From Vulcanimicrobiota bacterium (GTDB lineage: Bacteria; Vulcanimicrobiota; Vulcanimicrobiia; Vulcanimicrobiales; Vulcanimicrobiaceae): DNA of 64,000 nucleotides. The notes under the pieces were generated by a model. That model did no database searches, was not told the DNA's origin, and saw only the letters and a list, made by a program, of their open reading frames with translations. Below, one piece after another: positions 2,031-56,779 of this stretch (its first letter is position 1; the number at the start of each line of letters is the position of its first letter). The translations under genes and the position numbers were made by a program. The stretch lies in assembly GCA_963777315.1 (NCBI GenBank), contig CAVZQC010000001.1, forward strand, positions 288,001 to 352,000, read 5' to 3'.

Positions 2031-5000
2031 TTAGGCGAAGGGCGTGGCGACCGGATGCATCTCTTCGCGCACCGCGCGCTTGTCGGCGCGGCGCTCCAGA
2101 TATCCGATCCACGTGTTGTAGATCATCGGGACCAAGAAGAGCGTGAGAATCAGCGAGCTCGAGCAGGCCTCCGATGATCACCGTTCCCATGGCCTGCCGC
2201 CACTCTCCGCCCTCGGCATATCCCAGAGCGAGCGGCAGCATGCCGAAAATCATGGCGGCCGTCGTCATGACGATTGGCCGAAAGCGTGTGGCCGACGCCT
2301 GCAAGACCGCATCGCGAACGCGCATGCCGCGTTTGATGAGCGTGTTGGAGTAGTCCACGAGCAGAATGCCGTTTTTGGAAACCAAGCCGAAGAGCATGAT
2401 GATGCCCAAGATCGAGATGATGTTGAGCGATTGACCTTGCTCGGGCTGAAGCCGGCCCATAATCGCCAGAAAAACCAGCGCGCCGATGATGGCCAAAGGC
2501 ACCGAGAACATAACGATGAGCGGTTCCAGGAACGAACCGTAGAGAACGACCATCAGCATGTAGACCAGCATGAACGACGTCAGCAGCGCGATGCCCATGT
2601 TGACCATCGTCTCGCCGACCCACTGCGAGTTGCCCTGTGCGGTGGGTGCGACGCCGGAGGGCAGGAAACCGGGCTCGCGCATCTTCTTTTCGAGCGGCCC
2701 TTGCACCTGACCGGTGGAGTAGCCCGGCAGCAGATCGGCGGTGACGTTCACCACGCGCTGGCGGTTCAAGCGTTCGATGCGCGTCGGCGCTTTCGTCCAC
2801 GTAAACGATGCCACGTCGCCCAGCGGAATCAGCGTTCCGTCCTCGGCGCGCACGCGTACCGTTTTCAGATCGTCGACCGTATTGCGGTCCGCTTGCGGAA
2901 ATTGCACGCGCACGTCGACCAGCCCGTTCGGGGTTCGCACCTTGGTAGCCACGGCTCCGTCGACCGCGATGCGGGCAACGTTCGCGGCTGCCGAAGGCGC
3001 AACGCCAAGCAGCGCAGCTTTGGCTTGATCGATGTCGACGTTGAGCCGGGGTGCGGCGATCTCTGCGGACGTCTGCACGTTCACCGATCCCGGGATCGTA
3101 CGCAGGAAGCGGGCCACTTTTTCCGCTGCAGGGCCGATCGCGTCCTCGGGGCCGGCCAGCGAATAAAAGATCGCCGAGCCGCCGCCGCCCCCGCCGCTTT
3201 CCTGGTTGACTTGGAAATCACCGCCGGGAACGAGATATCCCATCTTGCGGATCTGCTCGACGACCTGATTGGTTTGCTTGATGTGCGCGTCGTCGACTTG
3301 CGCCGTAAGGCGCGCGAAATTACCGCCCATCGTCATGCCGAAACCCGAAGGCTTCATACCGACCGTCGAGCTGACCGATTTCATCCAGCGAACCTTCATC
3401 AGCGCGTCTTCCAGCCGCGTTACGTATCGATCCGTCGTCGCGATCGGCGTGCCTGGCGGATAACTCACGGCCATGTTGATGACGCCGGTTTGCTGCGCCG
3501 GAAAGAAATCGAAGCTAATGCCGCCCAGGGACCACATGATGACGCCGAGCACGATCGGCATCACGATTGTCGCCGCCGCAACCGGCAAGTGCGTACCCAG
3601 CGATGCGAATCCGCGCACGGGTTTGCGGCGGCTGCGGCCGCGCATGCGCATCACCCACGCGATCGCGTAGAACGCCAGCGTTACGGCGACGATTCCCGCA
3701 TCGAGCGGCAGCGCGTTTGCACCGTTGCCGATGAGCGCCATCGCGTTGACGAGCAACACTGCGCACGTGAAGACCACGAACGTACCGTGCGCGAGCGCAA
3801 ACGGCAGCAGCACATCCTTGTAGAAACGCGTGAACTGCTCGTACCGGTGCACGATGAAGTTCAGGATGAGCAGCGCAACCACGAACACCGCAAACACGTT
3901 GAGCAGGAACCAGCCCGTTGCGCTGCCGGCAACCCACATCACTGCGGCGGCAGCCAGCAATCCGAAATCCAGAAAGCGGTTGTCCAGCGCGCGAACCCAG
4001 GCCGGATCGCCCTCGGAGCGCTTGCGCATGCTCCACCTTGCAGCGAGCAGCGGCGTGAGCGTGAAGGACACGAACAGCGAGAACAGCGTCGCCGTAACGA
4101 CGACGGCGCCGTATTCCTTTAAGTATTCGCCGGTAATGCCGGGCAGAAGCGCAATCGGCAGAAAGACGACCACGTCGACCATCGTGATCGCGACCGCGGC
4201 GCCGCCGATCTCGCTGCGTCCATTTATGGCGGCGTCGATTGGGTTTTGCCCCATATCTCGATGCCGCGTAATGTTTTCCAAAACGACGATCGAGTCGTCG
4301 ACCAAAATACCGATAATCAGGGAAAGCCCCATCATCGAGAGATCGTCGATATGGAAGCCGAAGAGCTTCATCAAAATGAACGTGGAGAGAATCGACGAGG
4401 GGATCGCCACCAAGACGACGACCGCGTTGCGCCAGGCGTGCAGAAAAAGCATCATCACGATGGCGGTCAGGACGATGCCCTCGAGCAGCGACTGCCCAAC
4501 GCCCCAGAGTTCCTTCGCCGTGACGTCGGCCTGCGCGTCTTCCTCGACGAACTGCAGCTGCGGAAAACGCGCTTCGATGATCTTCATCTGCGCCCGCGCG
4601 CCCTTGGTCGCTTTGATTTGATCTGCGTCGAGCGTCGGATTGATCTGAATGTAGACGCGGGGCTGCCCGTTGTAGTGCGACATCGTCCGCATCTCGACAT
4701 GGCTGTCGTAGGCCTTCGCGACGTCGCCGATCTTCAGTTCGCGAGTCGACGAACCGGGTACGGGAAGCGGAATTCCCAGCAAATCGTCGGCTTTGTTGAC
4801 GTACGAATGTATCGCGACGCTCGCCTCCTGCGTCGGTTGCGTCAGGATGCCGCCCGGAACGTTGAGATTATTGTTTGCCACCGCGCCGAAGACGTCGGAA
4901 AGCGTCGCATTTGCGCCGAGCAGCCGCGACGGGCTGGGCTCGACGTGGAATTCGCGGTCGGCTGAGCCGTACACGTTGACCGACTGCACGTCCGGAATCT

Positions 5001-5505
5001 GTTGGATGAGCGGCGTTATCTGATTGTTGACCAAGTCCGCGATCTGTGTTTGAGAAAGCGTTCTCGAACTGACCGCGATGTCCAGCAGGGGCGGCGTATT
5101 GTCGCCCGCGGACTTATCGACCGTCGGAGGATTCAAATCGGTCGGCATGTACACGCGCGCGGTATCCGTGCGGCGCTGCACGTCGACGGCGGCGAGATCG
5201 AGGTTGGTGCCGATGCGGAAAAATACCGCGACGCTGGCTGAGCCTTCCTGGGCGGTTGCCGTGATGTGATCCAGGTTGTCGATGCCGGCCATTTGGTCTT
5301 CGATCGGCTTGATGACCAGCCGTTCCATGTCTTGCGGAGATGCGCCGGGATAGCCGGCCTCGATCAGGACGACGGGAAATACGGTTCCGGGCGGATTGGA
5401 GCTGCGCCCGAGCTGCATGAACGAAACAAAACCGAAAATCGCCAAGGCGATGAACACCATGGCGGTGATGACTGGTCGGCTAATCGCAAATCGGGTCAAC
5501 CACAC
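2031..5505 (-). CDS. RND efflux permease (AcrB/HAE1 family); 1-nt frameshift at about 2160
   Basis: Motifs YPGASPQDME, IGILVDDSIVVLENI, GLVSKNGILLVD, RFRPIVMTT. Removing one base at 2160/2161 restores the canonical last helix IIGGLLSSLILTLFLVPMIY, ending at TAA 2031-2033. Confidence 0.93.
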
Positions 5506-5627
5506 GATAGAAAAATGGCTCCTAGAGCGGTCCGGTCTGTGCTACAGATACGCCGCTAACGCTCTTGGGGTTTCAGCTGTGCCGTTCTGCGGATTATGGC
5601 ACCTTACAGCGGCGCGCAAGCCGTTGG

Positions 5628-8790: not shown

Positions 8791-9657
8791 TCACCACTGC
8801 GCGCCGCCCATGGACGCCGCCATAGTTGCGCTCGGATGCGCGGCTTTCCTGGAAAGGCCGAGGATCTCGCGTGCCTGGTCGGGGGTGGCGACCGGCCGTC
8901 CGAGTTCGTTCGCCAGCCGGACGACGCGCGCGACCAGCTCTTCGTTGGTCGCCAAACGTCCTTTCGAATAGTAGATATTGTCTTCCAGACCCACGCGAAC
9001 GTGGCCGCCCATGGCGAGCGCTGCCATCGCCATCGGCAGCTGCATGCGCCCGATGCCCGCAACCGACCACGTGCAGCCGGCAGGCAGGGAGTCGACCAGG
9101 TCGCACAGATTCTGCACGCTCGCGTCCAAGCCGCCCGGAACGCCCAGCACGAAATCGACGTGCTGAGGGAATTCCAACAACCCCTCCTTGTGCAGCCGCC
9201 GTGCGTTCGAAAGATGCCCCTTGTCGAAAATCTCCAGCTCCGGCCGAACGCCGAACTCATGCATTTTTTGCAGGATGGCGCGCATGATGGGAAAGCTGTT
9301 TTCAAAAACCTCGTCACCGAAGTTGACCGTTCCGCACGTGAGGGTGGCCATCTCCGGACGCAATTGCAGAACCGACGCGCGCTCGATGGGCGTCATGCCG
9401 ATGGCGCCCCCGGTGGAGAACTGCACGATCACGTCGCTTTGCGCGCGAATTGCTTCATACGCTTGCCGAAAACGCGCGACGTCGTGCGTGTTGCTTGCGT
9501 CGTCGTTTCGGCAGTGCACGTGCAGAATCGACGCTCCGGCCTCCCGCACCTTGCGCGCCACGTCGGCCAGCTGCCGGGGAGTAACGGCCAAATGCGGCGT
9601 CTGCTCGGGCGTGAGCTCCGCGCCCACCGGCGCCACGGTAACGATCAGCGGATCCAT
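8791..9657 (-). CDS. kce: 3-keto-5-aminohexanoate cleavage enzyme (BKACE/Kce family)
   Basis: LIVTVAPVGAE, GASILHVHCR (HxH), QFSTGG, PELEIFD, GGHVRVGLEDNIY. Confidence 0.9.
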   Translation of the reverse strand: MDPLIVTVAPVGAELTPEQTPHLAVTPRQLADVARKVREAGASILHVHCRNDDASNTHDVARFRQAYEAIRAQSDVIVQFSTGGAIGMTPIERASVLQLRPEMATLTCGTVNFGDEVFENSFPIMRAILQKMHEFGVRPELEIFDKGHLSNARRLHKEGLLEFPQHVDFVLGVPGGLDASVQNLCDLVDSLPAGCTWSVAGIGRMQLPMAMAALAMGGHVRVGLEDNIYYSKGRLATNEELVARVVRLANELGRPVATPDQAREILGLSRKAAHPSATMAASMGGAQW

Positions 9658-12165: not shown

Positions 12166-12727
12166 TTAGCCGATGTGAAAGACCTTTGCCAGGATGAATG
12201 CGACTCCGGTGAGCATCAGAATGATGCCGGAAAACAACTCCGCGCCTTCTTCCACCCGCCGTCCCAGCACCCGTCCGAGCGTGAGCCCGGCGAACGTTGC
12301 CAGAATCGAAACCGCAAAGATGATACCAAGCGCGAGCCAAAGCGAGACGCCGATGTACAGAATCGAAAAGCCGATGCCGAGCGAATCCAAGCTGACGGAA
12401 AGCGCCGCGATGAACAGTCCCCATCCGCGCGACATGTCCAGCGGGACCTTTTCCTCGGCCTCGCGCAAGGCTTCGAAAATCATGTATCCGCCCACGGCAA
12501 CCAATGCTGCAAAGCCGATATAGCCCGCGACGCTGCCCAACAGACTGTCCGGCGACGTGGCCTAAGCCTACGCCGATGAGATTCATGATGACTTCGGCAG
12601 CCGCAAACGCAAGTCCGATGCGGATCCGCAGCGCGATCGGGGTGTCGCGCATGCCGACGCCGATGCCGACGGCAAATACGTCGAGCCCGAGCGAGAACGC
12701 CACGACGAGGATCTTTACGAGATGCAT
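12166..12727 (-). CDS. mntP: Manganese efflux pump MntP family; 1-nt frameshift at 12544
   Basis: LGLDVFAVGIG and LSVSLDSLGIG motifs lie in two frames. Deleting A12544 joins them (HVAGQLLGSVAGYIG). Confidence 0.82.
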
Positions 12728-14006: not shown

Positions 14007-14904
14007 ATGGCCGTGATCGATAGTTGGTTCGCGCCCGATTCATTTTTTTCCAAGCGCTTTTTTTTCTTGGCAAGGCGCTTCGTCGCAGGCGAAACGATCG
14101 AGTCGGCCATTGCCGCCGTGCGCGTGCTCAACGCGGCCGGCATGACCGCAACCCTGGACTTTCTTGGGGAAGACGTTCTCGAACGGCAAGCGGCGCTGCA
14201 GACGCGCGACGCTTACATGCGAGCGCTGGACGCCATTGCCGCCGCGGGCGCGCAAAGCAACGTGTCGGTAAAACTCACGGCAATGGGATTGCTGCTGGGC
14301 CAAGACGTCAGCTCTCGAAAACTTGACCGCAATACTCGAGCATGCCCAAACCCGCAACGCCGACCCGTTCGTGCGCATCGACATGGAGGGCTCGAGCGTA
14401 ACGCAATCCACTCTCGAGGTTTTCGAACGGGCTTTTGCCGCGCACCCGAATGTGGGGCCGGTCTTGCAGGCCTATCTCAAACGCACGAAAGGCGACGTGC
14501 AGCGAGCGATCGGCATGGGCGCCCGCGTGCGGTTGTGCAAAGGTGCGTACAGCGAGCCGCCGGAGATTGCGTACCGCAACATGGCGCAGATTCGCCGTTC
14601 GTACCTGGAATGCGCGCAAGACTTGCTCGTCCGCGGCAACTATCCCGGTATTGCTACGCACGATCCGGCGATCATTGAAGCGATCAAGCAATTCGCGCGC
14701 GACCGGGGCGTCAAACCCGAGCAGTTCGAATTCCAAATGCTGTACGGGGTGCGGCCTTCGCTGCAGCGGCAACTGGTGCGCGAGGGATACCGCTTGCGGG
14801 TGTACGTTCCGTTCGGAACGCACTGGGCCGGGTATTTTTACCGGCGAGTCGCCGAGCGCCGGGAAAACGCGCTCTTCGCTCTGTCGTCGATCTTCACGAA
14901 ATAA
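14007..14904 (+). CDS. Monofunctional proline dehydrogenase; 1-nt frameshift at about 14309
   Basis: RRFVAGET, LDFLGE and SVKLTAMG in one frame; VRIDMEGS, VRLCKGAY, IATHD, EFQMLYG, RVYVPFG and RRVAER in the next. Confidence 0.92.
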
Positions 14905-18445: not shown

Positions 18446-19148
18446 ATGAAACGAGCGTTTGCTGGCGCTCACGCTGTTGGCGTTTAGCGTACCGGCCTTC
18501 GGCAACGGCGGCGCGTTCGCCGCCGCCATGACTCAAGCCAAGCTGCCGGACAAACCAATGGCGGGCGAGACGGCCTTCGTTCAGAAGGTCACCGCGGATC
18601 TGAATGCGCGCTTTGCCACACCGGCGGACGCGGAAAAAGCCGGCTACTTCCGGTACAACAATGAGGATGATACCGGCGCCATCAGCTATGCCAATCTGGC
18701 GTGGAACAGCGCGGCCGATCCGGATGCGCCCGCGCCGAGCCAGCTGTGGTACGACGTGAACGGCCGGCTGCTGGGGGCAGACTTTTCGGTTCCGCTCAAG
18801 GACAGCGCAACGGTGCCGCACCTGTGGGGTTTGGATCCGCGCCGGTGGGACAAATTCGGCCGGGACCACGTGCACTACATCGTAAAAAGCGCCGACGGAA
18901 CAATGAGCTACGGCCACGCGGTGAGCGGCAAAGCATTTGCGGCCGCGGGCGGCAATTTTGCCGATCCGCAAGCGGCGACGCTGGTAAAACTCGGCAAGGT
19001 CAAAAGCGTGGACGAGGTGAGCAAAATCTTCACGTTTCCCGCGCAGTGGGACGTGGAAGTGTGGCTGACCCCTAATCCGTTGGGCGCGTTCGCCGAAAAG
19101 AACCCGTTGGTGCACCCCAGCAAAAACGCGGCCAAGCCGGAGGAGTAG
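18446..19148 (+). CDS. Hypothetical secreted protein; 1-nt frameshift at about 18457
   Basis: SD GGAGGA plus ATG 18446. Removing one base gives signal peptide MKRALLALTLLAFSVPAFG in frame with ORF 18459-19148 (FATPADAEKAGY, QLWYDVNGRLLGADF). Confidence 0.75.
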
Positions 19149-19154: not shown

Positions 19155-19798
19155 TTACTTCTGCGTCGAGCAGCGGGTCGAAACGAGCTCGATCGCCGCG
19201 TCCGCTGCGGCATTTTCAGCCCGATCGATAACGTCGCGCTGACCGTCGAACCGTAAGTAGCTCTTGACGTCTCGCATGTCTTTGGGGACGGTCTGGTCGG
19301 ACAGTTCCATTTGGGTTACGTCGAGATCCGCCGGCGGCTGATAGCTCATCATCGTCTGCACGACGCCGCCGACGTCGATTGAGAGTTGCATCTGCTTGTT
19401 GTACGCCAGTGCAGCTTTTCGGCGATCTGGTGCAGCTGCTGCGCCTCTTGCGCATCCTGCGTGAGTTTTTCGCCCTGCCTTAGGCGATCGATCTGATCTT
19501 GCATCCCGGGCAAGCTCGAGCGAATTCGCCCCAGGTATTTCATCAGCTGGACGCGCACGCCGGCATATCGGATCTGGTAATCCGCGTGATGAAAGACGTC
19601 GTTGAGGTCGGTGAGTTGCGAATCGATGCCTTCAAAGTCCCGATCGTTGGCCAGCATCGGCAGCACCGCGGCGTTGAAGTGCTGCGCGATGGAGCTGCAG
19701 AAGGGCGTGGAACGCACCGTTACGATCGTCTTGAGTCTGGGCGGGTTCGCGGCCGCCATGAGCAGCAGCGCAAAAAACGCGCCGTAGGCGCGCTGCAT
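19155..19798 (-). CDS. Hypothetical secreted helical protein; 1-nt deletion at about 19410
   Basis: ORFs 19349-19798 and 19155-19391 join as AEKLQLAYNKQMQLSID when a base is restored in CAG[C]TG. Signal peptide and LKTIVTVRSTPFC motif. Confidence 0.7.
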
Positions 19799-32219: not shown

Positions 32220-32893
32220 ATGGGCCGGCAACTTCACGTTCACTCACATCCGTCGCGCGTAGAGCATTGGCGCCATCTTATTGAAATCGTCGCCGTCGTA
32301 AGCTGCGGACTATCTGGGCGCTTTATGTTTTCGTTTATCAGGAACGCATAAAACCGGCGAACGAACCGCCGGAATTTCAGCCGGCGTTCTCGGTCGAGCA
32401 TACGCTCTTGCCGAGCGGCAAGGAGTTCGTCAAGGTGCACGTCGATGCGAAAAACGCCGGCCAATCGACGATTTTCATCGGTGGAATCGCGGTGAACGTC
32501 TACGGTATTCGGTTCAACGACAGGATCCGCACGCGAACTATAACGTCATCTACCGACGATCTGTTTAACCGGACCCTCCTGCCGGAACGTCCGACGCTGC
32601 TGTATTCAACCGGCGCATCGATGCAGCCCTTCGGAAACCCCAATAGTTTCGTCAACCTGCAGCCCGGCACGAGCTACGCGGGGTCGTTCGCGTTCGTCAT
32701 TCCACCGCATAAGCTCGATTCGGTGCGGATCCAGTGGCAGATCTGTTTTTCAAAACTTGCGAACAAGACGTGGCATATGCCCCTAAACCGGCGGCCCGAC
32801 GGCTCAAACTGGTTCAACGACAAGTACAACCAGGCTAACGCGGGTACGGGGCTCATCTGCTACGACGACCCCGGTGCATACTATCCGCTTTAG
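32220..32893 (+). CDS. Hypothetical membrane-anchored protein; frameshift at about 32300-32310
   Basis: ATG 32220 frame gives EHWRHLIEIVAVV. The downstream frame gives IWALYVFVYQERIKP, continuous with ORF 32408-32893. Together they form one transmembrane helix. Confidence 0.65.
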
Positions 32894-37608: not shown

Positions 37609-38969
37609 TCGTTCCGGAGTTGCGTTCGATCCGATAGACCCCTTGAGCGATCAGTCGTCGCACGGCCGCCTGCGATTCGACCAGTCGCGCCGACTGAGGA
37701 AATGCGCGGTCGATCAGAACGTAACATGCATCTACCGGCAGGTTCGCCGTTTCCGGCAGCACCGCGGCGTTGGGGTCGCGCGCGGCCAAATGCGTATACG
37801 CTTCCTCTTGCGTTGCCACCGAAACGTTACTGGAAAGCGTGCTCAAAAAACGATCTAACGCATCGTCGGCGGGCGTGCGCGAATGCAGAAAGTATCCCGG
37901 ATGCAACGGATTGGCGGCCGCGAATTCAGACTACGCAAAGCCCTACGCACCAGTACAGCGCAATTCGAGCACGCGCGGGCGAACGCGCCCACAGCGCGGC
38001 GATTCCCGCGCAAAATGCGTACAGCACCCAGCCCGTCCAGGCGCCCGCATAGTGTGAACCCATCGTGTACGTCGTCGGCATACGGGATGCGAGCACTTCC
38101 GCCAGCGGGACGATCGCAACGAGCATCGCCGGCGTTCGGAACGGTACGAACAGCAGCGGCACGAAGGCCAGCAGCAAAAAACCGATGCGCGCGAGCACGC
38201 CGTCCGGAAACAAAGCGCGCACATCGGAAGCGGTCCAGGCGTAAAAACGCGAGCCCGACCAATTAGCGTGGCCTTCAAGCGCGCCGGCATGCGGGGCGAT
38301 TGCCGCGAAATACACGATGAAAACGACGATCCCCAACGCACTCGCTGCGCACGCGAGGCGCAAACGCAGCGGATCGCTCCGATACGCCGCCGCTCCTATC
38401 GCCCCGGCAACGAAAACGAAGAGCGCCTGATCTTCCTTGACGCTCAGCGCGAGCAACGTCAAAGCAATCGTCCAACCCGCCAAGCCGCCGTCGAACGCCC
38501 ACAGCAGCCACGCAACCGCCGCGGGCGCCAGACCGTTCTCGTGGAAATCGTTGAAAATAACGCCCGCAAGCGGTGGGTAGAGCAGCACGATGAGCGCGCC
38601 TAGGCGCGCGATGCCGCGCTCCGTGCGCCGCGCCAGCAAGCCGTACACCGGCGGAGCCGTCAAGGCGCCGGCTATCGCCTGAATCGCGACGAGCGCAAGC
38701 GCAGAATCCCAAACGCGCATGACGGCGCCGGCGGCATACAGCACGGGCGAGAAATGAAACGCCCAATGACTGCCCTCGACCGTATTGCAAAAGCAGCCGA
38801 ATGCCGATGCCGCCGTTTGCGCGAAAATACCCATGTCGACGAAATTGCGGTGACCCGCATACCGGACCGCTCCCAGAAAAAAATACAGCGCCGCGTATGC
38901 CCCGACGCCGATCCACAGCAGCCAGTCGGAAAACACGGCGGCCCGAGCGTCGGCCCGGGAACGCTTCAC
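37574..38969 (-). CDS. DUF2079-like multi-pass membrane protein (GT-C-like); 1-nt frameshift at 37930
   Basis: DMGIFAQ, HWAFHFSP, DFHE, SVKED, HYAG. Deleting A37930 joins the ORF to 37574-37906 (GLCVAEFAAANPLHPG). Confidence 0.8.
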
Positions 38970-40933: not shown

Positions 40934-40936
40934 ACG

Positions 40937-43559
40937 TTACACAGTAGCCGCGCCGTGGCACTTCTTGTATTTTTTGCCGCTGCCGCACGGGCAGGTCTCG
41001 TTGCGTCCGACTTTGGGCTGATCGCGGTGTGCGGGTTTGGCCGGTTCTTCGCCGTCGCGATTCGTATGCACGTTGCGCGCACGCGTGGGCGCGGCTTGCG
41101 GCAAGAGCTGCCCGCTGGGGATCGGCTCGAATGCCGGCGGTCCGGCCGGAACGGGCACAGGCGGCATGGGCTGCATCGATCCTTGGCCGTCTTCGCCCGG
41201 GGGCGGACCCTGCTCGATCACCACGCGGAAGACGCCTTTGATGGCCTCGTCGGCGATGTTGTTCTTGAGATCTTCAAAGATCTCGTACGCTTCTTTCTCG
41301 TACTCGACGCGCGGATCGATCTGTCCGTAGCCGCGAAGACCGATGCCGGTCTTGAGATGGTCCATTACGTACAGGTGGTCCACCCACATCCTATCGATGA
41401 TCGGCAAAAGCAGATAGCGCTGCTCGACGATGCGAAGAATTTCCGGTGAAACCTCCTGCTCCTTACGTTCGTACGCTTCGCGCGCGGCGCCCTGAAGCAT
41501 CCGGCGGATCTCTTCCCGATCTTTTTTCTCGAACGTCGAAACGTCCATGGTGGCGCGAATCGGAAAGATCAGCTCGAGCTCGGCAAGCATCTCCTCGAAA
41601 TCCCACTCGCTGGGATGAGCGTTCTCCGGCGCATTCTGCTGGACTGCGCTGTCCACTTTGGCCTGCAGCGTCTGCAGCATGAACTCGCGCGAATCGAACT
41701 GGCCGCCGAGGATCGCGCGCCGGTCCCCATAGATCACCTCGCGCTGTTTGTTCATGACGTCATCGTACTCGAGGACGTGTTTGCGAATCTCGTAGTTGTG
41801 CGCTTCAACCTTGCTCTGCGCGCGCTCGAGCGATTTGGTGACCAGCGGCGATTCAATGGGAGCCTCGTCGGTGAAGCCTACGCGCTCCATGATGTTGTTC
41901 ATGCGCTCGCCGCCGAACAGGCGCATCACCTCGTCTTCGAGCGAAACGTAAAACCGCGTCGACCCCGGGTCCCCTTGACGCCCGGCGCGACCGCGCAACT
42001 GATTGTCGATGCGGCGCGATTCGTGGCGTTCGGTGCCGATGATGTGCAGGCCGCCCTGGCCCGCAACGCCGTTGCCGAGCTTGATGTCCGTGCCGCGCCC
42101 GGCCATGTTGGTTGCGATCGTCACCTGTGCGGGCTGCCCTGCGTCTTTGATGATCTCGGCCTCCTGCGCGTGATACTTGGCATTGAGCACGTTGCACTCG
42201 ACACCTTGGCGGCGCAGGATGGCGGCGAGCATTTCGGATTTTTCAATCGATCGCGTACCGACCAAAACGGGGCGGCCCTTCCGGTGCTCGGCCAGAATGT
42301 CTTGAACGACCGAGTCGAACTTGGCTTTTTCCGATTTGTAGACGATGTCGGAAGCGTCTTTGCGCACCATCGGCATGTTCGTCGGGATCACGACCACGTC
42401 CAGGCCGTAGATGTCGCGAAATTCGCGTTCTTCGGTTTTGGCCGTACCCGTCATACCGGCGAGCCTATCGTACAAACGGAAGTAATTTTGAAACGTGATC
42501 GTGGCCAGCGTCTGGTCTTCGCTGCGCACTTTGATGCCTTCCTTGGCTTCAATGGCCTGATGGATGCCGTCGGAGTAACGCCGGCCGTACATCAACCGCC
42601 CGGTGAACTCGTCGACGATCACCACTTCGCCTTCCTTGATGATGTACTGCTGGTCGCGGTGGAACAGATTCCACGCTTTGAGCGCGGCGTTGAGCTGGTG
42701 CGTCGAGCTCGATATTGCGCTGCTCGTACAAGTTCTGGATGCCGAGCATCTTCTCGACCTTGGCCACGCCGGCTTCCGTAATCGGAACCGCATGCGCTTT
42801 CTCGTCGACGGTGTAGTCGTCGTCTTTTTTCAGACGTGGAATAATCTGCGCAAACTTCTCGTAAAGCTCGGTCGGCTCGGTGCCTTGGCCGCTGATGATG
42901 AGAGGCGTGCGCGCTTCGTCGATGAGGATGGAGTCGACTTCGTCGACGAGCGCGAAATAGAGATCGCGCTGCACCATGTCTTCGACTTGCCAGGCCATGT
43001 TGTCGCGCAGGTAGTCGAATCCGACTTCGTTGTTGGTTACGTAGGTAACGTCGCAATTGTACGCGGCGCGCCGCTGCGCGGGCTCGAGATCGTGCTGAAT
43101 GACGCCGACCGTCAGACCAAGGGCCGTGTAGATGGGCGACATCCATTCGGCGTCGCGGCGCGCGAGATAGTCATTGACCGTGACGACGTGCACGCCCCGG
43201 CTTTCAAGGGCGCGAGCGTATACGGGCAGCGTAGCCACCAGCGTCTTACCTTCGCCGGTCTTCATCTCGGCGATGCGGCCTTCGTACAATACCTGACCGC
43301 CCATGATCTGCACGTCGAAGTGACGCATGCCCAAAGTGCGCACGCCGGCCTCGCGCACCACCGCGAATACTTCGGGCAGCATCGCATCGATGTCTTCGCC
43401 GGCTGCGAGCCGTTGGCGAAACTCCGCCGTTTTGGCGGCAAGCTGTTCGTCGTCGAGAGCGTGGATTTGCGTTTCGAGCGCGTTGACTTTCTCAACGGTG
43501 CGCCGCAGTCGGGCGATTTCTCGCTCGTTGCCGTCGAAAAGCGTTTTCAGGAATGCCAT
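40937..43559 (-). CDS. secA: Preprotein translocase subunit SecA; 1-nt frameshift at about 42705
   Basis: [54 protein letters not shown]-terminal [14 protein letters not shown]. Frames join as [15 protein letters not shown]. Confidence 0.97.
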
Positions 43560-46876: not shown

Positions 46877-46953
46877 GGGTACTCCTTGGGGATGCTCCGG
46901 CGGTGGAGGCGCCGTGGAAGAAAGCTCGGTTGCCAGGATACACGCACGGCGGA

Positions 46954-47109: not shown

Positions 47110-47129
47110 TGCGACCAGATTCTCCTTTT

Positions 47130-47951: not shown

Positions 47952-49291
47952 GGCGCCGAAGCTTGCGTGGTCAACGCAGCGGCGACGTCTTGCCCGACCA
48001 CGACCGTTACGTCGCTCGCCGCCGAGCCCGCGGGTGAAGGCGAGGGCGTCTGGGAATCGTCGATCACGCGCGCCGATTGCGCCGCCTTTCCGAGCGCCTC
48101 ACGGACTCTGACGCCCGCGTACGCGATGCTCGAGTGCTCGTGCAGTTCCGTCGTTGCGACGTCGGAGCTTTGCGCGTTGCTCACGCTGCCGATCGTGAAT
48201 CCCTGCTTACGCAGCATGGATGCGACGCGGCGCGCGAGACCGGGAATCGCCGTCCCGTTCTCGACGTCCACCCGCACGGAGTTGGGCGCGATGGCAGCCA
48301 CTGCGCTCGCATCCGGCGCGGGCGTAGGCACGGGCGGATCGATCAGCATGTTTTCGACGAGCTGCGCTTTCTTGGCTTCGTCCGGAATGAGCACTTCACC
48401 GCCGTCGGCGGCGATTTTGGTGTCGACGTACGGTATTTTGTCGGTATGCAGTCCGTTTTTGGGCATGCGTGCAAACTCGGTCGCCAAGCTGATTTCTTCC
48501 TGACGAGTGAAATTCGTCTGCACGTCTCGCGAAAACACGGCGATGAGATCGTTGAGATGCACCAGCGTGTTGAATTTATCGCTGCGGATCTTGTTGAGCG
48601 CGGCCTGCATGACTTGATCCTGGCGCATGATGCGGCACGGATCGCTGCACCAATCGTGGCGGAACCGGGCATAGCTGACGGCCTGGTCGCCGTTCATGTG
48701 CTGCATGCCGGGTTTGAAGTGAATGTGCAGATGTCCCCATGTGTCGTCGTAGTCGATGGGGCCGTTGGGCCCCGTGTGCATCAACGCATCGGAGTTCTTG
48801 GGATCGATCTCTATGCCGCCGATGGCGTTGATGAGGTCTTTCGTGGTGTTGATGCGGAGCAGCACGTACCTGTCGAAGCCCGAGATGCCCAGCCATTTTG
48901 CGATGACGGCCTGGGCTTCGCGAACGCCGCCTTCGGCCTGCGCCTGATTGATCTTCGTTTCTTCGCCGTTGGGCAGCACCGCGTCCATGTCGCGCGGAAC
49001 CGACAGCACGTATACGTTGTCGGTGCGAAAGTCCAACGTTATGGCCTTGATGACGTCGCTGCGCGACTTGGTCGAATATTCTTCGTCCTTGTCCGTGTAG
49101 TCGTAATCCAAACCTTCGGCCAAAACCAGAATGCGGTTTTTGCGGAAGAGTTCTTGCGGCGCGGGCGTGAGACGCCCGGCCATGATGTCCAATGGCGAGC
49201 GCTTGAGCGCAACGGAGAAGCCCGCGACGACGGCTAGGAAACCGACGACTACCAGACCCAAAACGATCAGCGCAATGCCACGCCTATCCAA
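47948..49291 (-). CDS. LCP (LytR-CpsA-Psr) family protein with LytR_C domain
   Basis: SRSDVI, LSVPRD, YARFRH, RIMRQDQV; VDVENGTAIPGLA...DVTVVVGQD. Confidence 0.92.
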   Translation of the reverse strand: MDRRGIALIVLGLVVVGFLAVVAGFSVALKRSPLDIMAGRLTPAPQELFRKNRILVLAEGLDYDYTDKDEEYSTKSRSDVIKAITLDFRTDNVYVLSVPRDMDAVLPNGEETKINQAQAEGGVREAQAVIAKWLGISGFDRYVLLRINTTKDLINAIGGIEIDPKNSDALMHTGPNGPIDYDDTWGHLHIHFKPGMQHMNGDQAVSYARFRHDWCSDPCRIMRQDQVMQAALNKIRSDKFNTLVHLNDLIAVFSRDVQTNFTRQEEISLATEFARMPKNGLHTDKIPYVDTKIAADGGEVLIPDEAKKAQLVENMLIDPPVPTPAPDASAVAAIAPNSVRVDVENGTAIPGLARRVASMLRKQGFTIGSVSNAQSSDVATTELHEHSSIAYAGVRVREALGKAAQSARVIDDSQTPSPSPAGSAASDVTVVVGQDVAAALTTQASAP

Positions 49292-50663
49292 CGGCAGCGT
49301 CCTTTGCCGGCGCCGTGCCGTAAAAATCGAAGGGACCGCTGCCCTCGAGCGTTACCGTCGCAAACTCTCCGGAGCAAGCGTCGCCCGTGAAATAGATCCC
49401 GCCGTCGACGCCGGGCGCTTCTCCCATCGAACGCCCGAACCAGGGACGGGAGGTCCCGAGCGCGGTGCGGATACGGTCGTCGCGGCGTAAGGTTCGGCGG
49501 TCTTCGACCAGTACGCGGACGCTTGCGCCCACGCGTGCGGCACGCCCGTGCTCAGCCGCCTTGCGCTGTGCTTCGCGCAAGCGAATCAGCCGACGGCGCT
49601 TTTGCGCCGCAGCGACTTGCCCGCTCAGCTCCGCACCAGGCGTATCTTCTTCGCGGCTATATGCAAAAAAACCGACGCGGTCGAGCTGTGCGCGCGCGAG
49701 CCATTCCTCTAAGTACTCAACGTGTTCTGAGGTCTCGCCGGGAAAGCCGACGATGAACGTCGAGCGCATCGTAATGCCGGGAATACGCCGGCGGAAGTCC
49801 TGCAATATCTCCAGGTACCGCTCGCCGTTGCCGGGACGGCGCATCGCCCGCAGAACTTGCGGATGCGCGTGCTGGAGCGGCATGTCCATGTACTTGCACA
49901 CTTTAGGCAACTGCGCCATCGCGTCGATCAGATGCCGGTCCACCGTTGCCGGATACAGGTACAGCAGGCGAATCCACTCGACGGTTTCGATCTCCGAAAT
50001 CCGCTCGAGCAGATGCGCCAAACCGCCTTGCCGAACGCCGCGGTCCCGGGCCCACATCGAGGTATCCTGTGCGATGAGAATCAGCTCTTTCGCGCCGCCC
50101 TGCGCCAAAGCGCGCGCTTCCTTTAAAATCGATTCTTCACTGCGGCTGCGAAAAGCGCCGCGCAGTTGCGGAATGATGCAAAACGTGCACGGATGATCGC
50201 AGCCCTCGGCGATCTTCAAATACGCGCTTGCACGCGGAGTCGTTACCAAACGCGGCAAAAAGTCGTGTTCGGGTTCGCGGTCCAAGTGCAGGCGGACCGG
50301 GTGATGTCCCGCGCGTGCATCCTCGAGCAATTCCGCGATGCCGGCATACGCGCCGGTACCGACGACTCCGTCGATTTCCGGAATCAGGGCCTGCAGTTGC
50401 TCGCCGTAACGCTGGGCCAGGCAACCGGCTACGATCAGCAGCTGGCCGGGTCGTTTGCGCGCGGCCTGCTCCATAATCGCATCGGTTGACTCGGCCTTGG
50501 CCGGGTCGATGAACGCGCAGGTGTTCACGACGACGGCGTCCGCATCGCCGGCATCGCCCGTCAGCTCCCATCCGCGCGCGCCGAGCTGCGCGATCATCAC
50601 CTCGGTGTCGACCAAATTCTTCGCACATCCCAGCGAAACGAACGAGACTTTCGCGCGCAACAC
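49284..50663 (-). CDS. rimO: Ribosomal protein uS12 methylthiotransferase RimO
   Basis: SLGCAKNLVDTE, NTCAFI, KIAEGCDHPCTFCIIP, APGVDG. Confidence 0.95.
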   Translation of the reverse strand: MLRAKVSFVSLGCAKNLVDTEVMIAQLGARGWELTGDAGDADAVVVNTCAFIDPAKAESTDAIMEQAARKRPGQLLIVAGCLAQRYGEQLQALIPEIDGVVGTGAYAGIAELLEDARAGHHPVRLHLDREPEHDFLPRLVTTPRASAYLKIAEGCDHPCTFCIIPQLRGAFRSRSEESILKEARALAQGGAKELILIAQDTSMWARDRGVRQGGLAHLLERISEIETVEWIRLLYLYPATVDRHLIDAMAQLPKVCKYMDMPLQHAHPQVLRAMRRPGNGERYLEILQDFRRRIPGITMRSTFIVGFPGETSEHVEYLEEWLARAQLDRVGFFAYSREEDTPGAELSGQVAAAQKRRRLIRLREAQRKAAEHGRAARVGASVRVLVEDRRTLRRDDRIRTALGTSRPWFGRSMGEAPGVDGGIYFTGDACSGEFATVTLEGSGPFDFYGTAPAKDAAVG

Positions 50664-51157
50664 TAGCGGTAGTTCACGAACTGCAGGGGAAGTTCGTATT
50701 CCATCGCTTTGAGATGAGCGATCACTTTCTGCAGATCGTCGCGGCTCTTGCCCGAGACGCGGATTTGTTCGTCCTGGTACTGCGCGTTGACTTTGAGCTT
50801 CAGGCCCTTGACCGCCTCGATCAGCGGCTTGCTCTTGTCTTTTGGGATGCCGCTTCGCACTTCGATCGTTTGCCGGACGCAATCGCCTGCGGCGGGCTCA
50901 ACCTTGCCGAAGTCGAAAGCTTTGACGTCGATTCCGCGTTTGACGGCTCTGGACGTAACGATGTCCATGACGTTCTTGAGCTTGAGCTCGTCGTCGGAAA
51001 GCACCACGATCTTCCCCTTGCCGTCGTAATCTATTTCGGTCTTGCTGTGTTTGAAGTCGAAGCGGCCCCCAATCTCTTTGCGCGCCTGGTTGAGCGCGTT
51101 GTCGAGTTCCTGCTGATCCACTTTGGACACAACGTCAAAGGACGCATCGCTGGGCAC
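50663..51157 (-). CDS. yajQ: YajQ family nucleotide-binding protein
   Basis: SFDVVSKVD, RFDFK, RVSGKSRDDLQ, LQFVNYR. Confidence 0.96.
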   Translation of the reverse strand: MPSDASFDVVSKVDQQELDNALNQARKEIGGRFDFKHSKTEIDYDGKGKIVVLSDDELKLKNVMDIVTSRAVKRGIDVKAFDFGKVEPAAGDCVRQTIEVRSGIPKDKSKPLIEAVKGLKLKVNAQYQDEQIRVSGKSRDDLQKVIAHLKAMEYELPLQFVNYR

Positions 51158-51166
51158 GGGCCGCTC

Positions 51167-51875
51167 CTACAATGAAAACGATTTCTCGACGACGTCACCG
51201 GCGGCGCCGAGCTTGCCGACAGTTTTTCCATCGACCGCAATCTGCACTCCGCCGGCATTTCCAACGCGGATCAGCGCGGATTTGCCGTGGAACGTTTTGG
51301 TCGTCCCGGCCGGAAACGTACCCTCAATACTAACATTGCCGTCAACGGTGACCCTGAGCCAAGACGGCGCGGTCAGATGAACGACAAGCGTGCGCCTTTG
51401 CGGGCGGGCGGTCGGAATGACGCTGGGCGACACAGCCGCTTGCCGGGACGCAAGCGCCGAGGCCGTTGGAACGCCCCCTGCCAAGGGGCTGGTCTTCGGC
51501 GGCGACACGTACAGATAAATTACGAACCCGATGAGCGCCAAGGCCACGGCTCCGGCAATCCACAGCAGCGGCGCCAAGCTGCGCGGTTCGCGATAAGGTT
51601 GACCGACGGGCGTTCCCGGCGAGGACGCAGTCACAGACTGAGCGCTGCCCGAGGCCGTATTGTACTCGGCAACCGCCTGCTCGGGATCGACGCCCAAAAA
51701 ACGGGCGTAGGTTCGCAAAAAGCCCCGCGTGTAGACGGGTGCTCCAATCGCCTTCCAGTTTTCGTCCTCTATCGCCGCCAAGTACACCGAGCGGATTCGC
51801 AGTCTGCTCGGAGACTTCGGAAAGCGTCAGCCCGCGCTCTTCTCTCGCGGCCCGAAAACGTTCTCCCAGCGACAT
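51167..51875 (-). CDS. rodZ: RodZ-like HTH/transmembrane/DUF4115 protein; 1-nt frameshift at 51803
   Basis: [18 protein letters not shown] joined to [20 protein letters not shown], transmembrane helix, [16 protein letters not shown]. Confidence 0.88.
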
Positions 51876-51924
51876 TGGGGCTTGGTGTTTGCGCCGCTCT
51901 GCTGTTATCCTGTCCAACGGAGCA

Positions 51925-52998
51925 ATGGCGAAAACGCGCGTAATTGCTGCAATGAGCGGGGGCGTCGATTCCGCTGTTGCAGCGGGCCTGTTGGCCGAAG
52001 CGGGATACGACGTGATCGGCGTGACGATGAAGATGTACGCGTCGACGCGGCCCGCACATGCCAAGAGTTGCTGCGGCGTCGAAGATTTCGACGACGCGCG
52101 CCGCAGCGCCGGCGCGCTCGGCATTCCGCACTACGTGCTGAATTTTGAGCAAGCGTTTCGCCGCAGCGTCATCGAGCGCTTCGTCGACGACTACTCGCGA
52201 GGCCGCACTCCGAACCCGTGCGTTTCCTGCAATAACTTCGTGAAGCTGGGCACCCTGCGCGCGTACGCCGATTCGATCGGCGCGCAGTTCGTCGCCACGG
52301 GTCACTACGCGCGGCTGGAACACCGCCGGGATGGTCCGCATTTGTTTCGCGGCGCACGCCAAAAAGATCAGGCGTATGCGCTCGCTCAGCTCCAGAGCGC
52401 ACAGCTGTCCCGGCTGCTGCTGCCGTTGGGCGATTTGGATAAAGACTCTACCCGTGCGCATGCCCGTCGTTTGAGGCTTCCGGTGCACGACAAAGCCGAG
52501 TCGCAAGACATCTGCTTCGTCGAGGGCGGCGACTATCGGGACGTCCTCGCGCGCGACAAGCCCGACGTCTTTCGTGAGGGGAAAATCGTGACCCAAACGG
52601 GTGACGTTTTGGGCGCGCACCAAGGGGTGGCAAACTTCACCGTCGGACAGCGCCGCGGTTTGCCCTCCGGCCAAGCCGCGCGCTACGTTACACGCATCGA
52701 TGCAGCGACAAATACCGTGGTCGTGGGGCGCGAAGACGAACTGGATGCGGACGCTCTGATCGCCGACGCCGTGAACCTGATTCGTCCCGAGCGGTTCGCA
52801 AGCCCTCGCGCGCCGGTATTGGCGATGGTGCGCTATCGAACTACGCCGGCGCCGGCATACGCAACCATGAACGGTACGGTGCTCGAACTAGAATTCGAGC
52901 GCCCCGCCAAAGCCGTTTCTCCGGGGCAGCTCGTCGCGCTATTCGATCGCGATGGCGAAGAAGTGCTCGGCGGCGCTACGATCGCACGCGTGCAGTAG
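51925..52998 (+). CDS. mnmA: tRNA 2-thiouridylase MnmA
   Basis: [46 protein letters not shown]. Confidence 0.97.
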
Positions 52999-53006
52999 CG
53001 GCAACT

Positions 53007-53586
53007 TCAGCATAGGTAGATCCCGGCTGCGCGGTTTTTCAGCATCTCGTTGAGCATCTCTATCAGGACGCTGCGCTTTTCGGCGTCCGGCGCGCCGGCG
53101 TAACTCGTATACCGCTGCTCGAGCAAGCTCTGCAGGCCCTCGCTGACGAGCTGGCGCGAATCTTCGGAGCCCGGAGCAGCACCGACCGGATTGAGCTGCC
53201 CATCGATTTTGTTGGTTTCCAGCAACCGCAAAATCGTATATTCGCACGCCGCGCGGCGGTAGATGTTGCGGCGCGAGCGCGATTCGGGCAGCGTCTGGCG
53301 CGAACGCATAAAGAATCCATGCTCTTCCAGCACGGCGATAGACTCGAAAACCATCGTGGTGCTCAGAAGGCCGAGATCTTTGCGAATCTGCTCTATCGTC
53401 GGATGGCAAACGCCCCGGTCGTCCGCGAGCATCGTCAAGTACACGTACATGCTCAGTCTGACGCGGGTTGAGGACATGGAAAAGAAACCCGCTCCACCAG
53501 GTCGGCAATTGCACCGCGGGTGCGCACTCGCTGGGCGCCTCCCTTTCGGGGGGAACGGCGTCGTGGACGACGTTTAAATCATCCAA
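53007..53586 (-). CDS. Winged helix-turn-helix protein (HTH_36-like); 1-nt frameshift at 53457
   Basis: TTG start after GAGGTG; LNPRQLSMYVYLTMLADDRGVCHPTIEQIRKDLGL...LEEHGF...NIY. Confidence 0.65.
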
Positions 53587-53736
53587 ATACAGGCACCTCG
53601 CGACCGGAAAACCGAGCGATATGGACCCGCATTTCAAAAAGCGAGCCCTTCGCGCCTTCGTAAAGGACCGTACAATAAATTGAATACGTTGCAGCCCGCA
53701 GCCGGCTTGCCGTTGCGCCGGGCAGCGTAAGCGGCT

Positions 53737-54819
53737 TTACGCCGTGGCCAGCTCCACGTCCGCGCGCACGTTCCAGTACGTGTCGCGAATGACCGGCTCG
53801 AATCCCGCCGTCCTTACTATCTGCTCGACGTCGCGGCGCGAGGCCTCGTTCGTCGAGCCGGCGTCATGCACGACTTGCTCCTCGATGATCGTGCCGCCCA
53901 TGTCGTCGCAGCCGTAAAACAGCGCGAGCTGACCCAATTTCAAGCCCGGCGTGAGCCAGGAGGCCTGCAGATGCGCGACGTTGTCCAAATATAAGCGCGA
54001 TACCGCCAGTACGCGCAAGTACTCCAGACCCGTAGCCTCCTTGCCGCGCAGCGGGGTCTTCCATGGAACGTAGTACCACGGGATGAACGCGGTAAAGCCG
54101 TTGGTCTCGTCCTGCAGGCTGCGGATTGCGTCCAAATGCGCGATCCGTTCGGCGCGCGTTTCGATCGACCCGAACATCATCGTGGCCGTGGTCGGCATGC
54201 CGAGCGACTGGGCTTCGCGCATCACGCCGATCCAATCGTCGGGTTTGACCTTGCGCGCGCTGATGCGTTTGCGCACGCGCTCGACCAAAATCTCCGCGCC
54301 CGCACCGGGCAGCGATTTCATGCCGGCATTTTTGAGGCGCAGCAGCACTTCGCGGCACGACAGGTTTTCGATTTTCGCCAGCCCCGCGACTTCCGATACC
54401 GAGAGCGAATGGATGTCGACGCCTGGATATTCGGCTGCCACCCTGCGGAAAAGCCGTTCGAACCATTCCAGGCGCAGTTCCGGGTTCACCCCGCCTTGGA
54501 TCATGATTTGCGTCGCGCCTTGATCGGCGGCGTGTTTAACGCGCGCCAGCACCTCGTCGTGCGACATCGTGTAGCCCTCTTTGTGTTTTTCCGGCCGGAA
54601 AAACGCGCAAAAGGTACAGTGCACGTTGCACACGTTCGTGTAATTGATCGTCGTGTCGATTACGTACGTCACGGTGTTCGTCGGGTAGAGCTGCATGCGC
54701 CGCGCGTGAGCCGCAGCGCCGAGATCGTGAATGTCGGCCTCCTGATAGACGCGCACGCCTTCTTCGTAACTCAGGCGCCGGCCGTCGGCGGCTTTTTCCA
54801 GCAGACTAAGAAGCGACAC
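53737..54819 (-). CDS. mqnC: Cyclic dehypoxanthine futalosine synthase
   Basis: INYTNVCNVHCTFCAF, IQGG, PGAGAEIL, TATMMFG, FTAFIPW, LQASW. Confidence 0.9.
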   Translation of the reverse strand: MSLLSLLEKAADGRRLSYEEGVRVYQEADIHDLGAAAHARRMQLYPTNTVTYVIDTTINYTNVCNVHCTFCAFFRPEKHKEGYTMSHDEVLARVKHAADQGATQIMIQGGVNPELRLEWFERLFRRVAAEYPGVDIHSLSVSEVAGLAKIENLSCREVLLRLKNAGMKSLPGAGAEILVERVRKRISARKVKPDDWIGVMREAQSLGMPTTATMMFGSIETRAERIAHLDAIRSLQDETNGFTAFIPWYYVPWKTPLRGKEATGLEYLRVLAVSRLYLDNVAHLQASWLTPGLKLGQLALFYGCDDMGGTIIEEQVVHDAGSTNEASRRDVEQIVRTAGFEPVIRDTYWNVRADVELATA

Positions 54820-55636
54820 CGACGACCTCCGGAACGACTCTGGGAATGCGATCGATCGCACCGATGGCCGCCAGCTCGCGGCAGTACGCCGCCAGTCCGC
54901 GCTGCGCTGCGGAATGAAACGTAAAATTCAGCTTGCCGTAATAGATTTCGTAAAAGCCGGCAGGACGCGGTTTGAGGCTTTGCGCTTGCGCTATCACGCG
55001 ATCCCGGTTCGCACGTCCCCAAGAGTATGCGTCGGTAAGCGCGTGAAGGCAGGCGCGAACCTCTTCCAGGCGCCGTTCGAATATCTCACGCCTTGCCACC
55101 CACACTGCCGTCACCGACTGCTCACCGGTCCAATCGCGCCAGAGGGAGCCGAGATCGTAGACCTGTTCGGACGCAAACTCGAACGCCGCATCGATCGCGC
55201 AATCCCCGATGACCATTGCGGGCTCGCCGGCCCGAGCGTGCTCGAGCGGATCGTCGGTCTGCACGAACTGCGCGCGCACGCCGTATCGCCGTTCGAGCAG
55301 AATCGCAAGCAGACTGCGCCCGCTGGCCGATTCGCCGGTGGTGGCGATCTTCGCTCCGTCCAAAAGCGCCGGCGGCATGCCGGAGATCAGCAGCACGGAA
55401 ACGATTTCGTCGCGCGCGCCGATGCACAGGTCGGGCAACAGTGCGTAGCGCTGCGCGCCGGCCGCGTACTCGAATGCGCTCACGGGGCCCATGTCCAGTT
55501 CCCCGGAGCGCATCATCGCGTTCAGCCGCGCGGGAACGTCGGCCACCAGCGTACCGGGATACTCGACCACGCCTGCGTCGACCCCGCCGTAAATCGGCAG
55601 GTCGTTGACGTATTGCATGCGGCTGCAGCGCAGCAT
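54806..55636 (-). CDS. mqnA: Chorismate dehydratase (MqnA/MqnD family)
   Basis: YVNDLP, VPARLN, SVLL, SASG, VIGDCA, DLGSLW; lies between mqnE and mqnC. Confidence 0.85.
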   Translation of the reverse strand: MLRCSRMQYVNDLPIYGGVDAGVVEYPGTLVADVPARLNAMMRSGELDMGPVSAFEYAAGAQRYALLPDLCIGARDEIVSVLLISGMPPALLDGAKIATTGESASGRSLLAILLERRYGVRAQFVQTDDPLEHARAGEPAMVIGDCAIDAAFEFASEQVYDLGSLWRDWTGEQSVTAVWVARREIFERRLEEVRACLHALTDAYSWGRANRDRVIAQAQSLKPRPAGFYEIYYGKLNFTFHSAAQRGLAAYCRELAAIGAIDRIPRVVPEVVGVAS

Positions 55637-56779
55637 CAAACCATGGCCTCTTCGCGCTCGAGCGGCGGAGCCCAATCATAGTCGAACTCTTCGTAAGTCG
55701 AATTGCGGCGCACCGGAACGTATCCCGCCTCTTCGATCAGCCGGCGGAATTCGCGGTCGTCGACATACTGACCCGAACGCGTTCCGGCGCTGTGGTAGAT
55801 CAGCTCTTCGTCGGTGCTGCCATGCGTGCCGTCCATGTCGTCGGCACCGAACGCCAGCGCAACCTGGCAGACTTTGAGTCCTTGAATCATCCAGTACGCT
55901 TTGACGTGATCGAAGTTGGACAGCATCAGCCGGGAAACCACAAACATGCGAATGTCGTCCAAGCCGGTGGTCCAACCGCAGTCGTTCAGTTCGTTGCCGT
56001 CCGGATGAAACGCCAGCGGAATGAACGCATTGTAGCCCGGCGAGCGATCCTGGGATCCGCGCAGCCGCACGAGATGGTCCAACCGGTCCTCGAGCGATTC
56101 GATGTGGCCGTACAGCATCGTCGCGTTCGAGGCTACGCCTTGGCGATGCAGCTCTTCATGGATCTCGAGCCATTTTTCCGAGCCGACTTTGCCCGGACAA
56201 ATTTTTTTGCGCGTCTCCTCGGCGAATATCTCCGCGCCGCCGCCGTTGACGTTGTCCAAGCCGGCTTCTTTGAGCAGGGCAATCATTGCGGCAAAACTCA
56301 TGCGGTGACGCTTGCACATGTACTCGATTTCCGCAGCGGTGAACAGCGACAGACTGCACGTGCGGAAGCCGCGCTTTGAAGCGGCGCATCAGCGGCAGCC
56401 AATAATCCAGCGACAGCTGGCGCGGGTCGTGGCCCCCGACGATGTGGATCTGGTTGAAGTTGGTGCCGGTTTCGAGCGCTTTACTCATCACGGCGTCTGC
56501 CGTCATGCGCATCGCACGCTGCGGTTCTTTGAACTCGTCGGCCGCAAACGAACAGAACTTGCAGCCCGCGTAACACACGTTGGTGGAATTGATGTAGCGG
56601 TTGAGGACGTAAAAGACTTTCTTGCCGCTCTTGCGTTCCTTTGCTGCGCGGGCAAGTCGTCCCAACGAGTGAATGTCCGGCGTGCGGAAAAGCACCAGGC
56701 CGTCGTCGATGGACAGAGGGACGCTTTGGTTTATCTTATGCTCGATCGGCTCGAGCGCGGGGTCCATCGGCAATGCCAC
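55636..56779 (-). CDS. mqnE: Aminofutalosine synthase; 1-nt frameshift at 56353
   Basis: INSTNVCYAGCKFCSF, IHIVGG, GGGAEIF, NATMLYGHIE, FIPLAFHP, HVKAYW, EELIYHSAG. Confidence 0.9.

Follow-up and report, generated by a model that had tools for sequence, protein, structure and literature searches.

AGCT is contained in the targets of M.AluI, which writes AG5mCT (5mC, 5-methylcytosine), and of M.PvuII, which writes CAG4mCTG (4mC or m4C, N4-methylcytosine). Here we analyze positions 288001-352000 of contig C1 of the Eremiobacterota genome G000 (the window, 64,000 nucleotides, numbered from its first letter), where 11 frameshifts interrupt genes, together with P0001, a methyltransferase encoded elsewhere in the genome and predicted to modify AGCT. 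The target, a predicted one for P0001, contains AGCT in all three cases and M.PvuII is also a beta-class m4C enzyme. However, no C5 enzyme of the M.AluI kind is common to the genomes affected here and, in contrast to M.PvuII, the errors are not limited to CAGCTG and no partner nuclease was found next to P0001.

Orphan enzymes for the same site are described in archaea. The available parts of PMC10609329 list HG11, HG16 and HG19 as persistent orphan m4C enzymes for AGCT and report that GATC and AGCT marks occur together in Methanomicrobiales and Nitrososphaerota, the function of the pairing being left open. The accessible text of two further studies gives AGCT m4C with GATC N6-methyladenine (m6A), measured with SMRT (single-molecule real-time) sequencing in a thaumarchaeote (PMC6329791), and AGCT m4C in Thaumarchaeota (PMC8919816). 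P0001 resembles the HG16 enzymes of Methanomicrobiales in being beta-class and orphan, in the error motif of its genome, AGCT, and in co-occurring with a Dam-like enzyme. In contrast, its host is a bacterium, its persistence is limited to certain genera (4/4 in g50), its specificity is predicted, and the Dam-like protein of G000 is only 36-41% identical to archaeal ones.

According to the available sections of the nanopore literature, modifications on which a basecaller was not trained are miscalled, and the errors disappear when the DNA is amplified (PMC6591954, PMC10687267, PMC11610573, PMC11610603); published motif errors include Dcm CCWGG (PMC6591954), Listeria GCWGC/GCTGG (PMC10687267) and Klebsiella RACG (PMC11610573). 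The errors reported here likewise affect one short motif, at part of its sites, and may track a methyltransferase of the lineage, whereas they fall on AGCT, are seen as indels that break reading frames, mostly +1, and were inferred from assemblies alone. This class of artefact is already published, and we describe no new kind of system. An Eremiobacterota lineage carrying this type of orphan methyltransferase, mostly with a Dam-like gene, is modestly new. A search that left most subscription papers and REBASE outside its range turned up nothing on nanopore errors at AGCT or on methylomes of Eremiobacterota.

Our main conclusion, to which we assign a probability of about 0.78, is that the AGCT-clustered breaks are systematic long-read (probably nanopore) consensus errors, likely resulting from m4C written by P0001, a predicted activity. 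All 11 contexts were present in the window as the sequence-only reading had given them, together with 188 intact AGCT sites. Nine sites (2160, 12544, 14309, 19410, 37930, 42705, 51803, 53457 and 56353) were recovered independently as one-base frame breaks against intact orthologs of the relative G001, and each showed a one-base gap in blastn comparisons with one to six relatives. All 11 are genuine frame breaks. The earlier claim that every one sits at AGCT holds for 10 of them, which lie in or beside the motif, and fails for 18457, which is unplaced. At this site, the G of the fourth codon is kept in the relatives G007 and G011 and the gap falls in or after the T run, favouring a slip in that run, an alternative already flagged with the claim, which appears to fit at least as well as AGC[G]T. 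At 32301, both pieces are joined in seven full-length homologs (210-223 amino acids), whose length indicates a net change of +2 over 11 bases starting with AGCT, the exact bases not being placeable. Per site, a placement 1-6 nt in width would repair to AGCT by chance with a probability of 1.3-6.6%. The alignable part of the window, 44.5 kb under strict and 48.4 kb under relaxed settings, gave no other well-supported break; with relaxed settings the only additions were 24937, a mirrored error of G001 itself, and a weak call at 1932.

The same motif dominated the breaks of the whole genome. G000 comprises 2.83 Mb in 6 contigs of up to 936 kb (62% GC, 89.9% complete, with about 10% of the genome missing), and such long contigs in an incomplete bin, taken with the error type, suggest long reads, probably nanopore. 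The names attached to its homologs suggest a place in Ca. Baltobacteraceae / Vulcanimicrobiaceae within Eremiobacterota. Breaks were called against intact open reading frames (ORFs) of G001, a syntenic genome of the same genus and about 75% identical, by frameshift-aware codon dynamic programming (DP), which took the place of a first tblastn pipeline troubled by shadow-ORF noise. Over the 702 kb of coding DNA that could be aligned, 45 of the 60 raw breaks repaired to AGCT, compared with 3.3 expected (maximum 11 in 1000 permutations). A polarising filter against mirror calls removed 18 of these 60, among them mirror images of errors in G001 and also true breaks such as 37930; because true breaks were dropped, raw and filtered counts are both reported. 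After filtering, 36 of 42 breaks repaired to AGCT (2.1 expected). Two of the six residuals lay within 7 nt of AGCT or AGNCT, and 12544 was counted among the six because DP put its best repair 2 nt off. With the window set aside, 37 of the remaining 51 raw breaks repaired to AGCT, and the pattern was therefore not produced by the choice of window. About 1.8% of AGCT sites were broken (1945 intact sites in the same aligned space). A reference-free scan of all six contigs, whose first thresholds recovered 2 of the 60 known breaks and whose retuned settings recovered 36-41, gave AG[A/T]CT in 56 of 162 +1 candidates (2.3 expected), distributed over five of the six contigs and both strands, and AGNCT or AGCT in 109 (22.1 expected). 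These results bear out the earlier proposal that AGCT is enriched among genome-wide indels.

Among the 42 filtered breaks, the extra base was A or T inside the motif (AG[A/T]CT) in 20, C or G at the same position (AG[C/G]CT) in 1, and C or G beside the motif in 8; the others were 2 ambiguous insertions, 5 deletions and 6 unrelated breaks. The commonest error thus falls between G and C and adjoins the C on both strands. CAGCTG accounted for 13 of 22 central-insertion contexts and was favoured, not required; with the other nine not CAGCTG, the PvuII-type target of the sequence-only reading is too narrow. Other palindromes were not enriched (GATC, 3 compared with 4.0 expected; GTAC and 11 more, no excess). 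AGCT avoidance did not separate genomes carrying a P0001 ortholog (observed/expected 0.64-0.94) from the non-carrier G005 (0.86), and no AGCT or GATC cluster stood out at dnaA. A test for C-to-T miscalls (TTG versus CTG after AG) was uninformative because G005 and the fragmented carrier G007 showed the same excess.

Relatives were scanned with G000 ORFs as queries, covering 200-1191 kb of each, and the DP analysis of G001 covered 628 of 1025 ORFs. In the carrier G001 (3 contigs), 69 of 114 breaks were at AGCT (6.1 expected), at other genes than in G000. The carriers G006 and G023 (1 contig each) had 6 of 12 (0.3 expected) and 2 of 3 (0.2 expected) at the motif. By alignment, no AGCT break was found in 117 kb of G007 (170 contigs; 3.8 expected, P 0.02) or in 98 kb of G005, which is a single contig with no P0001 ortholog and no PF01555 match (4.7 expected, P 0.01). 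In the carrier G011 (L158-L167), random one-base insertions came at a rate of roughly one in 1.5 kb (of 68 breaks in 102 kb, 64 were insertions); it is a poor-quality assembly, and its broken genes should not be read as pseudogenes. The methyltransferase gene itself has a +1 break in G001 (L100) and G011 (L106), neither placeable on AGCT.

The sequence-only reading had placed the modifier outside the window and suggested searching the genome for methyltransferase genes. The best candidate from this search, predicted to be the writer, is P0001 (C4, 926000-926980), the only match to PF01555 over the cut-off in G000. The gene is intact, with DPPY, invariant in 118 aligned proteins, near the N-terminus, and it matches the PADLOC MTase_II model PDLC03296 (E 8e-129). 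Genes for an M48 peptidase and a hydrolase flank it, and a survey of 30 neighbours at 13 loci, 10 of the 30 having no Pfam match, revealed no nuclease family. Judged from its sequence, P0001 is an orphan beta-class methyltransferase with no partner restriction enzyme beside the gene. Residues ~262-327 form a conserved C-terminal extension (W275, G294, R310 and G311 invariant in 118 sequences) that has no Pfam match, is absent from the ~250-amino acid archaeal form and gives the impression of a small helical DNA-binding domain.

P0001 is 62-63% identical to Methanoculleus bourgensis enzymes and 59-63% identical to Methanoculleus and Methanoregula proteins; a relative was present in 39 of 41 Methanoregula-family genomes, which was of the long form (56-68%) in 22 of them and solely of a shorter form (45-51%) in 17. 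The available part of the PMC10609329 supplement gives M. bourgensis the groups HG3, HG10 (GTAC) and HG16 (AGCT, m4C), of which HG10 and HG16 are beta-type, whereas six Methanoregula, Methanospirillum and Methanosphaerula rows show HG16, HG18 and HG20, without HG10. The beta-type group common to M. bourgensis and the Methanoregula-side taxa in these rows is HG16, and P0001 was therefore placed there; by this elimination it would belong to the archaeal AGCT m4C group. In a tree of 21 methyltransferases, four methanogen rows of ~330 amino acids grouped (93/91) beside Eremiobacterota rows, and the direction of transfer was not readable because the outgroups were saturated.

P0001 orthologs were present in 9 of 36 family relatives and, in an even sample of the phylum, in 8 of the 80 genomes from the family and in none of the 70 from elsewhere; these counts and those that follow rest partly on unpublished G027 (a carrier) and G008 (a non-carrier, tallies only). 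A Dam-like gene was also present in 13 of 16 distinct carriers. Among 37 family genomes, which as kin are not independent, 8 had both genes, 2 the beta-class gene only, 2 the Dam-like gene only and 25 neither. The Dam-like D12 enzyme of G000 (C2, 531708-532580; L190:1414-2289) is an orphan whose gene sits between genes that read, from their translations, as glyA and upp. Of the proteins with solved structures, DpnM and E. coli Dam come nearest to it, and it has the stretch GFNGL.R.N...FNVP.GRY in common with them; both enzymes are GATC-specific. In G006 (C1, 1465515-1467915), a split PF01555 methyltransferase adjoins the Dam-like gene in an arrangement that recalls a DpnII-type cassette.

In the mechanism we propose, native DNA would have been read by nanopore, where a mark poorly covered in basecaller training would shift the signal, and a wrong consensus would remain at ~2% of AGCT sites. 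The breaks are AGCT-specific and mostly add a single base, the commonest insertion being A or T at the centre of the motif, between G and C. That base is absent from an independent sequence at one site, as described below, and probably from the DNA at the rest. The writer would be P0001, as homology and elimination suggest, and the mark m4C on both AGCT strands, which would account for the symmetric insertion between G and C. GATC errors may be lacking because the basecaller already handles that mark. In the living organism, the genes would be unbroken and P0001 would act without a restriction partner, providing a lineage-stable epigenetic mark.

The breaks might instead be real, as pseudogenes or as products of a mutational or programmed hotspot at AGCT: they are present in the deposited sequence, and a near-identical independent record exists at one site only. 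However, the broken genes include secA, cysS, guaA, aspartate kinase, ychF, scpA and nfo (from a scan of 35 G001 orthologs). The first four are each split into halves that are both 69-91% identical to G001, and no second copy of any of the four was found in G000; single-copy essential genes are thus affected with neither half decayed. In-frame stops numbered only 2 in 233,613 aligned codons, and neither the further decay nor the spare copy that marks a pseudogene was seen. In addition, where G000 is broken its relatives are intact, their own breaks lying elsewhere. Run X1, the sole public run holding part of the stretch (6% of words), contains short pieces identical to the window. It was compared over window positions 37000-56999, a range that leaves out the five sites below 20000 and 32301. 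A 151-nt X1 contig of depth 2.1, with no library recorded, covers 51730-51881; apart from one differing letter, its only departure is that it lacks exactly base 51803, and a more distant X1 record, a contig of a relative, lacks base 42705. Real breaks are scarcely credible on this evidence, and the breaks are most likely systematic long-read consensus errors rather than pseudogenes, as the sequence-only reading had supposed. A weakness of the basecaller or polisher for unmodified AGCT in certain contexts would fit the preference for a 5′ C (18 of 22 central contexts compared with 41% background), and the one long-contig non-carrier tested, G005, gave a reference-free result that was not clean. 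By alignment, however, G005 had no break over 256 AGCT sites, the literature search turned up no general AGCT weakness, and the rate differs about eightfold among carriers (0.6-5%), so that we regard this explanation as improbable.

If AGCT is modified, the mark could still be something other than m4C made by P0001, either m6A from the Dam-like enzyme or from P0001 itself, or the product of a modifier lying in the ~10% of the genome that is missing. The Dam-like gene is present in G000, G001, G006 and G023, beta-class DPPY enzymes can write m6A, and the best solved relative of P0001 is CcrM. On the other side, the Dam-like protein resembles GATC-specific enzymes and the commonest error adjoins C on both strands. 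The AGCT marks reported in the available parts of PMC10609329 and PMC6329791 are m4C, and we consider another mark or writer unlikely. AluI-type 5mC, put forward in the sequence-only reading, would have a candidate in the one C5 methyltransferase of G000 (C2, L056:604-2529; best PADLOC model DruM2), which has a divergent Vsr gene alongside. No close relative of this enzyme was found in G001, G006 or G023, however, and PF00145 had no match in G001 (93% complete), G023 (92%) or G011 (72%); because G001 has the strongest signal, 5mC is disfavoured. Phosphorothioation or a 7-deazaguanine-type base would also be conceivable, in that an altered backbone linking G to C would likewise be central. The dnd/ssp route suggested earlier found no counterpart: DndB, DndC, DndD, the PAPS-reductase family and GmrSD_C (PF14072, TIGR03183, TIGR03185, PF01507 and PF07510) had 0 matches in the 89.9%-complete G000, dpd not being searched. 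SspD and SspE we take to fall in PF01507 and PF07510, respectively. A PAPS-reductase-family gene was present in 14 of 14 control genomes and may be missing from the G000 bin. Together, 5mC, phosphorothioation and 7-deazaguanine-type bases receive little of our credence. G000 further encodes the M subunit of a type I system, and a 1354-amino acid frame gave a weak match to N6_Mtase.

Several observations weigh against m4C written by P0001 as the source of consensus errors. Presence of the gene does not by itself single out P0001, because the Dam-like gene occurs in the same affected genomes. The HG16 assignment was made by elimination from cluster numbers, without gene identifiers, in the available part of the PMC10609329 supplement, and the shorter form in 17 of the 39 Methanoregula-family matches may be another group. 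In G011 (20 contigs), a noisy assembly, 8 of 68 breaks were at AGCT (3.7 expected), a number reached by 9 of 500 permutations. The reference-free scan of G005 gave AGCT or AGNCT in 5 of 8 +1 candidates (0.9 expected); three of the five resemble ordinary gene ends and two have no homolog to test. There was one control of each kind, G005 as long-contig non-carrier and G007 as fragmented carrier, with the further long-contig non-carriers G009, G021 and G032 left out. The read check consists of one contig at one of the 11 sites, at depth 2.1 and possibly from another strain. Finally, accounts of R10 chemistry, in the available text, describe mainly substitutions, not insertions (PMC10687267, PMC11610573, PMC11610603).

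Table 1. Frame breaks in the window, with strand and supporting comparisons
Feature	Window positions	Strand	Support
RND efflux permease, +1 beside AGCT	2156..2160	-	One-base gap in 6 relatives; G001 DP
mntP-like gene, AG[A]CT +1	12542..12546	-	Relatives; reference-free scan
Proline dehydrogenase, +1 beside AGCT	14309..14313	+	G001 DP; relatives
Signal-peptide-like gene, +1 near start, AGCT placement unsupported	18454..18461	+	G007, G011
One-base deletion inside AGCT	19408..19411	-	G001 DP; 4 relatives
~222-amino acid membrane-anchored hypothetical protein, frame break starting at AGCT	32301..32311	+	Homolog length
DUF2079 gene, AG[A]CT +1	37928..37932	-	G001 DP; relatives; removed by polarising filter
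secA (only copy found), +1 beside AGCT	42705..42709	-	Relatives
rodZ-like gene, AG[T]CT +1	51801..51805	-	Relatives; base 51803 absent from near-identical X1 contig
Unnamed conserved gene, AG[T]CT +1	53455..53459	-	G001 DP; relatives
mqnE, AG[A]CT +1	56351..56355	-	G001 DP; relatives

Several other features were seen in the window and genome. The prfB CTTTGA programmed frameshift site at window positions 39993-39998 (minus strand) is ordinary, and genes for a KamC-like ATPase and a KamB-like reactivase (both below the cut-off; 9645-12727, minus strand) adjoin the broken mntP-like gene. G000 has a tRNA-SeC gene and two tRNA-Ser(GCT) genes. TGTCA/TGACA was the most depleted 5-mer in G000 (observed/expected 0.36; 0.16 per kb in coding and 0.86 in non-coding DNA). 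It was also low in G005, G006, G007, G011 and G023 (0.42-0.57), not in G001 (0.94). Since the depletion is present in the fragmented G007 too, it is likely a sign of genuine avoidance or of a binding site.

By extrapolation, an estimated 129-161 genes are broken in G000, and these, secA, cysS and guaA included, would be wrongly called pseudogenes. False pseudogenes can depress completeness and mislead metabolic reconstruction, and G001 and G006 share the problem. The error footprint also speaks, indirectly, for AGCT methylation in an uncultured Eremiobacterota lineage and directs attention to an enzyme 62% identical to a methanogen protein. Co-occurrence of P0001 with the Dam-like gene echoes the archaeal pairing described in the available parts of PMC10609329. 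A wider interpretation, which we offer tentatively and hold to be possible though doubtful, is that a soil subgroup of Eremiobacterota and methanogens keep the same orphan AGCT m4C lineage, exchanged across domains, alongside a Dam-like enzyme. If this is true, frameshift footprints in public long-read genomes would suffice to assign methyltransferase targets in uncultured lineages, and the GATC and AGCT pair would form a common epigenetic module at work in bacteria as well.

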